IMG/VR virus record: IMGVR_UViG_3300042350_003801 | DNA: 64,000 nt | Reading direction: 5' to 3' (one strand) | Origin: a virus | Taxonomy: Duplodnaviria; Caudoviricetes | Part shown: one piece after another, positions 7,346 through 49,108 of the stretch | Position numbering within the stretch: position 1 is the stretch's first letter | How the letters are laid out: each line of letters opens with the position of its first letter | Translations under genes and position numbers: made by a program | Notes under the pieces: generated by a model | Database searches by the model: none | Told to the model about the DNA's origin: nothing | The model's input: the letters and a program-made list of their open reading frames with translations, nothing else

Positions 7346-7957
7346 TCAACCGGCCACAAAACCTTCAAACATTGGCACGAAAACTGGATTATCAATACCA
7401 CCAATTAGTTCATAAGTGGCATTCCCGGCGGCATTCCTGGCGGCATTCCTGGCGGCATTCCAGGCGGCATACCCGGCGGCATTCCCGGCGGCATTCCTGG
7501 CGGCATTCCTGGCGGCATCCCTGGCGGCATTCCTGGCGGCATCCCAGGCGGCATTCCAGGCGGCATACCCGGCGGCAATCCTGGCGGCAGACATGGCGGC
7601 AGACATGGCGGCATTCCTGGCGGCATAGTCTAGGGCATCATAACGGCGGGCAACTTCATTCCATTGGTTCTCGGTAAGACCGTCCATAAACCACCAGAAG
7701 TTAATGACGGTTTCGTAGTTTGGTCCTAAAAAGTCTTGTGGATTGGTTAGGGCTTCCGGGTTTTGAAGGCCGTTGGAGAAGTTTTGATGTGCTTTGGAGT
7801 ATGCCAATCGTTTAGGAGTAAGAACATAGTTGTTGACCAAAAGATTGGATAGTTTGACCAACAATTCAACTTGTTGCTCCAATGTAAGGTTCCCAATAAT
7901 TTCATCAACAGTAATTTGAACTTCAGTGGCGGGAGCAGGAAAAATAATCGGGCTCAT
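7346..7957 (-). CDS. GPNY-family paralog with 17 AAxx repeats and N-terminal extension
   Basis: [14 protein letters not shown]...ATYEL. Confidence 0.8.
7421..7624. repeat. 17 x 12-nt repeat GCCGCC-DGG-NNT
   Basis: Counted directly. Confidence 0.95.
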
Positions 7958-8031
7958 GGGTTGTTGTTTGCAGTTGACTTTGGTAGTTTAGACTACGGGT
8001 TGGAACAGTGGCGGACCCAGTGTGCCAGTTG

Positions 8032-8727
8032 CTAGACCGTCAGGTTGTATATCATATCTCTATGTTTTGTTGTCCATTCAAGATTGGAGTATCCTCCTTG
8101 TTCATATACCCTATCACATTCAATTTCATTATTAAGATAGTTCAACCAGGCAGTGCAAAAATTCATTGCAACTTCCCTCACACATCCCGGTGAGTTATCA
8201 TTAAGTTCATAAACCAAGGAATGCCTTTCAGACAGAGGATAAGGTCTTACATACTTGTACTCGCCGCTTAACACGGTTCTCCTTGGGTTATTCTCTTCTT
8301 CTACGAGTTGTTGGTATAAACTACCAGCAGTTAGGTCTTCCGGTTTAATATCGGGGAAGACATACTTTGCAAGTTCTTGTTCGATGAACTCTTCTTTATT
8401 CCAATTACTTTTTCTTTCTTTGCCTAGTTCTTTGAGTAAATTCTCCATAGATTTTCGTGTTTCTTCCCTACGCTCGGCGCGTTGTTCAATATATTGCCTC
8501 CATACTGGCATTCTCTTCTTTATCATTTTCTCTTTATTGAATTTGGGAAACAAATGAATTGGCAGCTTATCTTCAATGTCAATGGGTGACTGAGTTACTT
8601 CATCAATATGATATCCGTTTCCAATGGTAAAGAGAATATGGTTAAGAACACTTGCTGGACTAGGGAAAATACTATGATATTCGCCCATTTGATATGAAAT
8701 AAAATTGCAGATTGATTGAATTGTCAT
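8032..8727 (-). CDS. hypothetical protein
   Basis: ORF 231 aa. Confidence 0.75.
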   Translation of the reverse strand: MTIQSICNFISYQMGEYHSIFPSPASVLNHILFTIGNGYHIDEVTQSPIDIEDKLPIHLFPKFNKEKMIKKRMPVWRQYIEQRAERREETRKSMENLLKELGKERKSNWNKEEFIEQELAKYVFPDIKPEDLTAGSLYQQLVEEENNPRRTVLSGEYKYVRPYPLSERHSLVYELNDNSPGCVREVAMNFCTAWLNYLNNEIECDRVYEQGGYSNLEWTTKHRDMIYNLTV

Positions 8728-8785
8728 TGAAGGTTTGGATTTTGTTGTGGTTCTAGTGTATCACCTTAAGAGATGGCACATCTAT

Positions 8786-9184
8786 TCATTCCTTTTCAAG
8801 ATAAAAGCCATACTTGGATACTTCCTCTTGAAGGTCTGATAACCTAGAGAAAGTGGTCAAATTCCTATAGAATTCACTATTGGCAAATTCGTCAATCAAA
8901 CGAATACATTCCTCTTTAGTTTGAAAATAGCGTCTGCACACAAGAAGACCATCATCAATGTTGCTAATGGTCATTTGAACACAGTGATCATATTCGACCC
9001 ATTTATAGCCCCCATAGAAGTTGTAGCCAATCGTGAATTCTACAATTCCTGCACCATAATCGAGAAACTCAAGATGACCAGTCCTGACAATTTTTGAATA
9101 ACTATAGTCCAGGCTGGACTTATTGTAATGGTGAACCTGGCTAACTGCATCTTCGATGAGTTTGTGTAGTTCGTAAAGTTCCAT
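8786..9184 (-). CDS. hypothetical protein
   Basis: ORF 132 aa with palindrome promoter. Confidence 0.7.
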   Translation of the reverse strand: MELYELHKLIEDAVSQVHHYNKSSLDYSYSKIVRTGHLEFLDYGAGIVEFTIGYNFYGGYKWVEYDHCVQMTISNIDDGLLVCRRYFQTKEECIRLIDEFANSEFYRNLTTFSRLSDLQEEVSKYGFYLEKE

Positions 9185-47016: not shown

Positions 47017-47052
47017 TTTAGTTTCGTGTTTTGAATAGTAATTTAAAAAATG

Positions 47053-48276
47053 TCACTTACGATCTTGCATAATCGGGATTTCTCCGTTTTCATAAACGCT
47101 TTCAACGGTAGAATGAATTGTATCTGAAACTGCCTGAAGATTCTTATTGTAAACGGGAATGATTACCTTCCCCTCCGGTTTCAAATAACTTTCATAGTCT
47201 CCAACCTCAAGTGTTCCTTCTTCAATAGCCTTTGAATCTTCAGTAGAGATACGCAAGGTTCTTCCGATGTTTTGGACCAACTTAATAAGATTGAGTTGTC
47301 GCATCAAAAGAACAGCATCCAAAGATTTAACGTTGATTCCTTCTCCAAGAATAGAGTAGTTAAGAATCACATACTTACGCTCAGTGGAACTTCCAAGTTC
47401 ATCTAGAACTTCAAAGAACTTATCGCGTTCAATCTTTTGACCATTATGAAATGCCCCGTGATGTGCCGTAATATGAAGAAGGTCATAACCAAGTTCTTCT
47501 AGTTTTACTGCAAAGTTGGTTTCACTTAACATTTCCATCATCTTTTTTGTTGACTTAACGCATACAAGCAGTTTAGACAAGTCATATTCTTGGATAATAT
47601 TCAAAATATCATCCGCATCGTGTTGAGGTTGCCTTTCATCAATCCATTCAAGAGGATGTGAAATAACTCTCGGCTTAAGAATGTAACCCCCTATAATTAA
47701 CTCAGAAGCAGTTGCTTTTGCAATGATACTACCATAAACAGAATCATTCATTCCAGCCTTCTTGATTGTTGAACTAAATCTTGGAGTTGCGGTAAAATGA
47801 TAACAACGTTTAGTGGTCTCGCTGACATTCTTTACATACTCGTGAAACCCTGCAGATGTTGAGTTGTGCGACTCATCAAACATAAAGGTATCTACCTTAA
47901 TGCCCGATGCATAAATCTTCTTTAAGGAATGATAGGTTGCAAAGATTAGTTTATGGTGGGTCTTATGAATCTCAGTCCACTCTTTAATCGTTTTTGCATT
48001 GGTGGTATGATAATGCCTTACCTTGCCGTTTTTTGTGTGAACGTGTAGAAACTTGGCATTGTCAATATGCTTACCATAATCAAACGATAGTTGGGAAGCA
48101 AGAAGAATCCTTGGTGCAACAACAACTACAGTTTGCGGTTCATCTTTTTCAAACTCTCGTTTAGTATCAAAAATCTGAACATTAGTTTTCCCGGCACCAG
48201 TTGCCATTACAATGATGCCACGGTCTGTTTCAGAAAGCACAACAAGTGCTTGCTCTTGATGAGGACGGAGTTGCAT
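47053..48276 (-). CDS. superfamily II helicase (type III Res-like)
   Basis: ATGAGKT, DESH, TATP, GEGI, QNIGRTLR. Confidence 0.9.
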   Translation of the reverse strand: MQLRPHQEQALVVLSETDRGIIVMATGAGKTNVQIFDTKREFEKDEPQTVVVVAPRILLASQLSFDYGKHIDNAKFLHVHTKNGKVRHYHTTNAKTIKEWTEIHKTHHKLIFATYHSLKKIYASGIKVDTFMFDESHNSTSAGFHEYVKNVSETTKRCYHFTATPRFSSTIKKAGMNDSVYGSIIAKATASELIIGGYILKPRVISHPLEWIDERQPQHDADDILNIIQEYDLSKLLVCVKSTKKMMEMLSETNFAVKLEELGYDLLHITAHHGAFHNGQKIERDKFFEVLDELGSSTERKYVILNYSILGEGINVKSLDAVLLMRQLNLIKLVQNIGRTLRISTEDSKAIEEGTLEVGDYESYLKPEGKVIIPVYNKNLQAVSDTIHSTVESVYENGEIPIMQDRK

Positions 48277-48677
48277 TAAAAAGAAAGCATAGGAATAAAA
48301 ATCAATTCTTCGCCTTTATCAAGAATAGTTTGTAGGGCAATAAGTTCAAAAGTGACTGGGGCAGGAATGCTTGGAAACTTTCCTATAATATTTCTAACGA
48401 GGCTTCTAGATGCACTTGCGGCAGTAGCTCGTCTGTCCCAATCTAAAATTTCTTCAACATGATCAACGATCTCACAATATCTATTATTATATTGCATTTG
48501 TTTTAAACTATACTTACCTTCAAGTTCTAATAGTTGTTCTTTTGTCAACGTTTCAAGATACCACCAAAAGTTAAGGACTGCTTCATAGTTTGGTCCTAGA
48601 TAATTTTCAGGATTATCATATACTTCGTGAGTGCCATTGCGCTCAGCCAGATCTTGATGGGCTTTAGAGTAGTTCAT
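48276..48677 (-). CDS. GPNY-family paralog
   Basis: YLGPNYEAVLNFWW...TFELIAL. Confidence 0.8.
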   Translation of the reverse strand: MNYSKAHQDLAERNGTHEVYDNPENYLGPNYEAVLNFWWYLETLTKEQLLELEGKYSLKQMQYNNRYCEIVDHVEEILDWDRRATAASASRSLVRNIIGKFPSIPAPVTFELIALQTILDKGEELIFIPMLSF

Positions 48678-49108
48678 AAGTCGTTAAAAAGAGGAACAAA
48701 CAATAAGTCCTTACCGTCATTCAATAGAGTATGCATACCCATTAGTTCATAAGTGGCAGACCTGGCGGCATCCCAGGCGGCATACCTGGCGGCAGACCCG
48801 GCGGCATCCCTGGCGGCATTCCCGGCGGCAGACCAGGCGGCAGACATGGCGGCATCCCTGGCGGCAGCCCAGGCGGCATCCCTGGCGGCATACCCGGCGG
48901 CAGCCCAGGCGGCATCCCTGGCGGCAGCGTCTAGGGCATCATAACGGCGGGCAACTTCATTCCATTGGTTCTCGGTAAGACCATCAATAACCCACCAGAA
49001 GTTAATGACGGTTTCGTAGTTTGGTCCTAGAAAATTCTGTGGATTTGTTAGGGCTTCAGGGTTTTGAAGGCGGTTGGAGAAGTTTTTATGTGCTTTTGAG
49101 TAGTTCAT
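48674..49108 (-). CDS. GPNY-family paralog with 14 AAxx repeats
   Basis: Repeats at 48758-48925. Confidence 0.85.

Follow-up and report, generated by a model that had tools for sequence, protein, structure and literature searches.

The DNA analyzed here is a 64,000-nucleotide stretch (the window) of a 250,336-bp metagenomic phage from lake water (IMG/VR record IMGVR_UViG_3300042350_003801), and our subject is a set of seven paralogous genes in it that carry tandem arrays of a 12-nt unit. Using Tandem Repeats Finder, we located 12-nt arrays at exactly seven places in the window and none elsewhere. All seven lie within minus-strand open reading frames (ORFs) of 133 to 203 amino acids (aa) with near-identical flanks: a common N-terminal part of about 60 residues (including EVARRY.ALD) and a 27-residue C-terminal part bracket a run of Ala-Ala-x-x. 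An earlier note, made from the sequence alone, had counted 17, 12, 17, 15, 15, 9, and 14 units in these genes (99 in all), and a codon parse reproduced the count. The array genes are as follows.

7346–7957, minus strand: array paralog 1, 203 aa, with a longer N terminus and a divergent C terminus; array at 7421–7624, 17 units.
15394–15813, minus strand: array paralog 2, 139 aa from ATG; array at 15487–15630, 12 units; identical in contig L139.
26219–26689, minus strand: array paralog 3, 156 aa, GTG start; array at 26303–26506, 17 units; block GA-RN-MS-RI present twice.
27153–27596, minus strand: array paralog 4, 147 aa; array at 27234–27413, 15 units.
35092–35538, minus strand: array paralog 5, 148 aa; array at 35176–35355, 15 units; block WA-RD-GD-GS present three times.
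43249–43650, minus strand: array paralog 6, 133 aa from ATG; array at 43360–43467, 9 units, with a degenerate stretch (RRVV AAAGS) after it.
48674–49108, minus strand: array paralog 7, 144 aa from ATG; array at 48758–48925, 14 units.

Exact array proteins were found again on two to five independently assembled contigs (five for paralog 5), and the arrays are therefore not assembly artifacts. An antisense reading was rejected: the opposite strand of the arrays also reads AA-x-x, but the flanks contain stops. By eye, and with no predictor run, the array proteins show no N-terminal signal-like segment.

The 99 units fall into 17 types with the pattern GCCGCC-NGG-NNT. Positions 1 to 6 and 12 were invariant across all of them, and variation was found at position 7 (A46/G29/T24), position 10 (A36/G35/T28), and position 11 (A70/C25/T4), as well as at position 8 or 9 in 6 of the 99. 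Ninety-three units depart from GCCGCCAGGAAT at its three adenines only, where 94 had previously been counted; the exceptions are five ATG TCT units, which were on the earlier list of unit types, and one TCC GAT unit, which had been overlooked. As claimed, 14 of the 15 possible combinations of R/W/G with N/D/Y/S/A are present, RA being the missing one. The two variable residues are correlated (chi-square 42.7, p = 1e-6): the partner of W is A, that of G is Y or S, and that of R is N or D. Moreover, C hardly occurs at positions 7 and 10, yet it is the main change at position 11, and CGG, the synonymous A-to-C product at position 7, is essentially absent from the arrays.

One explanation for the adenine-centered variation is that a diversity-generating retroelement (DGR) outside the window copies an invariant (GCCGCCAGGAAT)n template into the arrays and makes its errors at adenines, a reverse transcriptase (RT) route that the earlier note had offered alongside slippage and gene conversion among units. 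The 93 units with adenine-only changes agree with this explanation, as does the fact that NGG and NNT codons can never become stops. However, the differences are not confined to adenines, since other bases are changed in 6% of units, and the spectra of the individual adenines disagree, with no A-to-C change at positions 7 and 10 and mainly A-to-C change at position 11. The correlation between the variable sites also argues against rewriting by a DGR.

It had further been claimed that no synonymous position varies in any unit despite an AT-rich genome, and this was borne out. In the rest of the window, GCC accounts for 20% of Ala codons, AGG for 15% of Arg codons, and GGG for 9% of Gly codons, so the array codons are not those preferred by the genome. 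In the conserved flanks of the array genes, the rate at which codon pairs for the same residue differ is 7 to 14% for the window paralogs and 22% across related phages, whereas 0 of about 520 array Ala codons differ. Arrays of the related phages (L001 and L003 to L012, in which the surrounding genes are 73 to 89% identical in DNA) contributed 163 units, which were again GCCGCC-NGG-NNT; positions 3 and 6 were never changed, position 12 was changed once, and position 8 or 9 was changed in about 8%. Altogether, the 262 units of the window and its relatives show zero synonymous variation, compared with 7 to 22% in the flanks. Because the units of the relatives are equally silent, the silence is a property of the family and not of a single genome, and chance does not explain it. 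In GC-rich scaffold homologs (L084, L121, L134, and P0240; hhalign probability, 99.5%), the arrays consist of GCC-GCA and GAC/GCC. Thus, the silent positions drift at long range, as concerted evolution predicts.

A neutral slippage simulation, as suggested in the earlier note, modeled unit turnover with uniform mutation and with the Ala codons under purifying selection, in 120 replicates. It did not reproduce the pattern: synonymous sites became as polymorphic as sites 7, 10, and 11, and the observed contrast appeared in 0 of 120 replicates. Selection or a site-specific force is therefore needed. This result bears directly on the view that the arrays are neutral low-complexity filler, a by-product of slippage with no functional meaning. 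Such a view is consistent with array lengths of 3 to about 20 units within the family, with the degenerate tail in the copy at 43249, and with the lack of a confident AlphaFold structure. Nonetheless, under neutral turnover the synonymous sites should vary as much as the rest, which they do not; in addition, array indels always come in multiples of 12, hundreds of homologs preserve the frame as well as both flanks, and the same residue sets occur on unrelated scaffolds with different codons. We consider neutral filler very unlikely.

The order of the units points to how they are exchanged. Blocks of three units recur 23 times versus 4.8 times in shuffles (p < 2e-4), and blocks of four units recur 7 times versus 0.4, with both of two shuffle controls far exceeded. 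Tandem Repeats Finder also gives periods of 36, 48, and 60 nt, that is, higher-order repeats. Blocks are duplicated within arrays, as listed above for paralogs 3 and 5 and as seen for a six-unit block present twice in L001, and other blocks, such as RI-WA-RD-GD and GS-RY-WD, are common to different arrays.

Comparison of close strains revealed the same kind of change. Over positions 1 to 17957 of the window, the ENA contig L139 shows a single mismatch and a 24-nt gap that cleanly removes two units of array 1 (the paralog 1 variant L139/P0109); array 2 is identical. Despite this indel, zero point changes were found at 87 candidate array sites. Two-unit indels also separate P0029 from P0287 and P0017 from P0285 (within 90% clusters). 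Between P0003 and P0275 (a paralog 3 variant), one unit is changed from GA to RD at both variable sites, and the neighboring block exists elsewhere. In nine further pairs of at least 90% identity, the arrays are identical and the N-terminal flanks differ by up to 5 residues. No scattered single-site or adenine changes were seen in the close-variant pairs compared. Four pairs (P0013/P0281, P0045/P0344, P0011/P0350, and P0041/P0355) carry identical arrays behind N-terminal flanks that differ by 4 to 6 residues, which suggests that paralogs or strains have recombined, the breakpoints falling within the conserved N-terminal domain.

At greater distance, related phages carry scrambled rather than identical arrays, as the ortholog comparison proposed earlier brought out. 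Positional orthologs in L011, L003, L004, and L006, with neighboring genes 80 to 89% identical, have no unit order in common with the window arrays. For example, the positional ortholog of paralog 5 (L011:10001-10408) and the orthologs of paralog 7 in L003 and L004 have unrelated arrays.

In-frame indels of whole units between close strains, higher-order and shared blocks beyond chance, and units that are over-alike within a lineage while distant lineages have fixed other codons are all marks of concerted evolution. Taken together, these data make it likely that the arrays evolve through slippage and gene conversion while selection keeps their residues diverse, and not through an RT-based mutator. 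Of the two routes suggested in the earlier note, slippage with gene conversion is thus supported by the block duplications, the blocks common to different paralogs, and the two-unit strain indels. Unequal array lengths and duplicated blocks, which unit-by-unit rewriting would erase, speak against a DGR, as do strain variants that consist of unit indels with no point changes.

The same strain data bear on a site-directed mutator other than a DGR, or a hot spot arising from misaligned units, acting at position 1 of codon 3 and positions 1 and 2 of codon 4 with no need for selection on diversity. The failure of the neutral model would be expected if such a force existed, and in 31 unrelated arrays (see below) 69% of minor-allele counts fall at unit positions 7 and 11. 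In addition, W, R, and G have only an NGG codon in common, which suggests limitation by mutation more than by chemistry. However, the allele set is small and identical across diverged phages, the synonymous codons AGG and CGG never occur together in one array, arrays can stay identical while flanks change, and the near-identical strains described above have a unit indel but no point change at any of the 87 candidate sites. A mutator of this kind is, in our judgment, improbable.

As for the machinery of a DGR, no reverse transcriptase (RVT_1) was found among the scanned window ORFs of about 215 aa or more, and neither RVT_1 nor a template was found in 10 kb beside a syntenic pair of genes, an array paralog and an Lcl-like gene, in a 243-kb relative. 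No template-like 12-nt array exists in the window outside the seven genes. RVT_1 was likewise missing from 15 IMG/VR records with such arrays, comprising 5 fragments with relatives of the scaffold family and 10 with unrelated arrays (6 of the 10 at least 90% complete), in a search in which control genomes do score. The search for an RT and an invariant template called for in the earlier note thus lent no support to the DGR part of its proposal.

The arrays do resemble DGR variable regions in several ways: variation occurs at few codon positions, stops are avoided, the unchanged unit occurs, and the residues found (N/D/Y/S/A/G/R/W) are like those of binding sites. They differ in their varying length, their duplicated blocks, the presence of some non-adenine changes, and the lack of an RT or template in the DNA searched. 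Their location differs as well, since each array lies in the middle of its gene, between conserved helices of an all-alpha protein, and not in a C-terminal variable region at the end of a C-type-lectin/Ig-like fold. Furthermore, analogous arrays without adenine at the variable site exist in RT-free phage genomes. Because comparable arrays use CGG/TGG/GGG and occur in near-complete genomes free of RVT_1, the adenine-centered pattern reflects the consensus codons AGG AAT of this lineage and is not a signature of mechanism.

Two points remain in favor of a DGR: the search for an RT and template covered a 64-kb window of a 250,336-bp genome, and the lineage may own a DGR, given the hypervariable Lcl-like end of a neighboring gene, typical of a DGR target. 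This gene (6383–7273, minus strand) lies directly downstream of array paralog 1 and has a DUF1566/Lcl-like C terminus. Across seven orthologs, hypervariability is limited to the stretch of about 30 residues that separates YWSSSE from VRAFRCVSY, as in a classical DGR target. Neither a template repeat nor an RT for this gene was found in the window or in the 10 kb of the 243-kb relative. L193:4085-4260 was tried as its template and rejected, as it is a broken second copy of the gene with mismatches that are not adenine-specific. On balance, we find it hardly credible that a DGR rewrites the arrays, and slippage and gene conversion under selection for diversity remain the reading we prefer.

Similar arrays occur in other phage proteins. 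At least 120 loci were returned when IMG/VR was scanned for runs of six GCN-GCN-N6 units; among these, 31 arrays of the AA[W/R/G]x type lie in unrelated proteins. Like the arrays of the window, these 31 are silent at synonymous sites, and their variation is concentrated at unit positions 7 and 11. Within any one of them Arg is written either as AGG or as CGG, and Ala, with few exceptions, as a constant pair of codons that differs between lineages; a single Arg codon and a fixed Ala pair per array are what concerted evolution predicts. About ten of them use CGG/TGG/GGG, so that the variable site has no adenine. Because the same residues (W, R, and G; D, A, S, and Y) are reached with other codons on scaffolds without detectable homology, selection at the protein level is favored.

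Proteins of the Imm5/Imm5_like families (PF14423 and PF21805), from phages and bacteria, have AA[W/R/G][D/A] runs with the same codon-level behavior, and a feature search of a protein atlas placed Imm5-like array proteins near the query. One such protein, L098, matches both Pfam models. In contrast, the scaffold studied here has no Pfam match, and hhalign against Imm5-like array proteins gave a probability of 0.2%. The Imm5-like proteins and our scaffold have the array type in common but not the protein family. AA[W/R/G][D/A] arrays are common among IMG/VR loci L021 to L137 (e.g., L059, L074, L095, L098, L116, L121, and L137), and their carriers include Imm5-like proteins, DUF7666-containing proteins, and a family with the motif MEAVAF...ECACPV. 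Related array types also exist (AA[W/E/R]S, AAT[D/R/Y/S], and AA[D/H/R/Y]S).

The scaffold itself is not limited to array genes. At least 13 array-free paralogs in the window have the conserved ends of the array genes, and several are joined head to tail with array genes through overlapping stop and start codons. The array-free paralogs are as follows.

44608–45009, minus strand: 133 aa, N-terminal motif MGPNY..ILNFWW and C-terminal motif ATDELISMH...VYVPLF; used for the structure model.
12787–13143, 14741–15154, 20149–20562, 25812–26222, 36771–37127, and 37124–37501, all minus strand: six further array-free paralogs.
37498–37920, 41918–42304, 42878–43252, 44228–44611, 45006–45350, and 48276–48677, all minus strand: six further array-free paralogs.

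The proteins belong to what we define in this analysis as the LGPNY-NFW scaffold superfamily, with a length of about 120 to 150 aa and the motifs SK.HQ...PE..LGPNY..VLNFW..LD.L and AT.ELI.MH.LL..G..L.F.PLF. A superfamily profile retrieved 421 representative clusters among 1.84 billion proteins, and about one in fifteen of the best 150 clusters has an array. Neither the array proteins (at E <= 1) nor any of 108 superfamily members had a Pfam match, and the scaffold family had no NCBIfam or PDB sequence match. Among the PHROG families of unknown function phrog_8332, phrog_18326, and phrog_3416, the first is matched by all seven array proteins (E, 1e-7 to 1e-13), partly via the segment before the array, whereas the array-free paralogs match none. 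No DNA or protein match to the scaffold family was obtained among the isolate phages in the collection searched, and a protein-profile scan of metagenome contigs gave no confirmed member. Searching metagenome contigs with an 18-nt flank pattern returned nearly exclusively unrelated EVARRY genes, plus one distant relative, L161.

For the array-free paralog at 44608–45009, a model based on 108 homologs had a predicted local distance difference test score (pLDDT) of 95.6 and a predicted template modeling score (pTM) of 0.90 and showed a compact bundle of short helices. In this model, a pair of helices lies between helix 44-56 and helix 98-112; in the alignment, it is this segment whose place the array takes. 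The helix modeling called for in the earlier note was also run on an array protein; it gave two long helices with a pLDDT of only 55. Ala-rich helix surfaces with variable faces, as proposed in that note, are plausible on these models, that of the array itself being of low confidence, and the array may form a helical hairpin projecting from a conserved base. Because the array protein models poorly, however, we infer this hairpin rather than observe it. Fold searches yielded no convincing relative of the scaffold: Foldseek found nothing in PDB or in the Atlas, and AFDB clusters gave only unnamed weak rows with TM scores up to 0.6. The best row of the VIA wide search, 8ows_A (a chain of the PT1 toxin/PIM1 immunity complex; Z score of 5.1 over 106 residues, 1.6 Z above the next row), falls short of what counts as meaningful in helical proteins and was not used.

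The evolution of the arrays by slippage and gene conversion, with selection for residue diversity, can be pictured in the following steps. An Ala-Ala-x-x run would have taken the place of the fold's middle helical segment in one subfamily. Replication slippage or unequal recombination would gain and lose whole 12-nt units, often two per event, and short-patch gene conversion would copy units and blocks within arrays, between dispersed paralogs, and probably between co-infecting phages. Such turnover would reset every position to the common unit, so that neutral synonymous changes, including CGG, which adds nothing to AGG, would be lost. Few old alleles would survive, all altering two exposed residues: position 7 would keep A/T/G, position 10 A/G/T, and position 11 A/C. 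Recombination inside units and from unit to unit would mix the resulting residues (R/W/G and N/D/Y/S/A) into nearly all combinations.

Several observations weigh against this account. GCCGCC is retained in all sampled relatives, although pure concerted evolution should fix another synonymous codon in some lineages; exchange between phages or a constraint at the DNA level may lie behind this. The near absence of C at positions 7 and 10, and hence of His (CAT), does not follow from the account, and to ascribe it to selection is only a guess. The array protein gives a poor structure model, and the population data consist of contigs that break at every paralog. In the Logan contigs, unique window DNA is 100% identical in runs of 2020 to 2024, and the in-array differences listed for these contigs were set aside as cross-mapping between paralogs, with contigs ending at every paralog. 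Lastly, that selection favors residue diversity is itself something we infer.

Hypervariable repeats of comparable design are known from transcription activator-like effectors (TALE) with their repeat-variable di-residues, from leucine-rich repeat (LRR) arrays of Flavobacterium and Dictyostelium, and from bacterial contingency loci. In common with the arrays described here, these have near-identical units, two adjacent variable residues, many paralogs per genome, units reordered among paralogs, and change by slippage or illegitimate recombination. The LRR arrays of Flavobacterium and Dictyostelium have hypervariable residues and evolve by repeat rearrangement (PMC10392669). The present unit differs in being 4 residues (12 nt) long, versus 34 aa in TALE and 24 aa in LRR, and in being embedded in a small globular phage protein, with no known target or code.

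The array genes are best explained as members of an extensive, unnamed family whose small all-alpha proteins are found in freshwater T4-like (cyanophage-related) jumbo phages. The phage helicase is 41 to 43% identical to helicases of 240-kb T4-like Synechococcus phages, and the family genes are packed in operon-like strings among replication and nucleotide-metabolism genes. The family may bind or block variable host factors. Because it is hugely expanded and its variable residues are typical of binding sites, our working guess, loosely held, is a repertoire of binders or decoys directed at variable host proteins. A bolder possibility, which we rate as rather doubtful, is that phages in general use Ala-Ala-x-x arrays as a hypervariable module for binding. 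Each array would be a helical hairpin exposing two residues per unit, set on at least two unrelated scaffolds (the present family and Imm5-like proteins) and shuffled by units, and a phage would keep a dozen or more variants to bind or block host proteins that evolve fast, such as defense or toxin components. A dedicated mechanism might promote this shuffling. The family and the array module appear to be undescribed in the literature on Imm5 and hypervariable repeats that we searched.

If this reading is correct, at least 20 genes in 64 kb are given to one unnamed protein family, and at least nine array-bearing variants are maintained, with variable faces fully reshuffled between phages sharing about 85% of their DNA. 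This would be the footprint of an uncharacterized arms race between host and phage. Since the array type recurs on unrelated phage proteins, including Imm5-like ones, it would amount to a variable module that can be reused, rather than an oddity of a single genome. It also calls for caution in the hunt for DGRs, as an adenine-only, non-synonymous-only pattern could arise without an RT, by concerted evolution and selection.

Two further traces of the family lie in the window.

50471–50608, minus strand: truncated paralog remnant, N-terminal 33 residues to LGPNYATV, frame lost beyond.
23945–23974, minus strand: stray flank copy, 30 nt, 27/30 match to the flank that follows the array; intergenic, no adjoining array.

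The relatives L003 and L004 have one or more intact paralog genes at the place syntenic to the truncated remnant; the window instead has two other ORFs at 49111–50608, one with a class II tRNA-synthetase core (tRNA-synt_2b, 49689–50498). The stray flank copy sits upstream of a 600-aa ORF (22023–23825) and may be left over from recombination or serve as a regulatory or antisense target.

The window also encodes a tail-collar fiber protein, an RNA ligase, class II aminoacyl-tRNA synthetase genes, TnpB elements, and a ubiquitin-like cassette. The two TnpB (OrfB_IS605/Cas12f-like) genes are at 33814–35010 and 54836–56014, both on the plus strand. The former abuts the 3' end of the array gene at 35092; at the syntenic place, L011 has no TnpB and carries another scaffold paralog. 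On the minus strand are a class II (Asp/Lys/Asn-type) aminoacyl-tRNA synthetase (45523–47016), a protein with a poly(A) polymerase/CCA-adding head domain (19310–20086), and a pyrimidine-dimer glycosylase (43653–44162). Finally, Tandem Repeats Finder detected a perfect 67-nt tandem duplication at 45233–45369 (2.0 copies, 100%) and a 102-nt repeat at 31751–31943 (1.9 copies, 84%).

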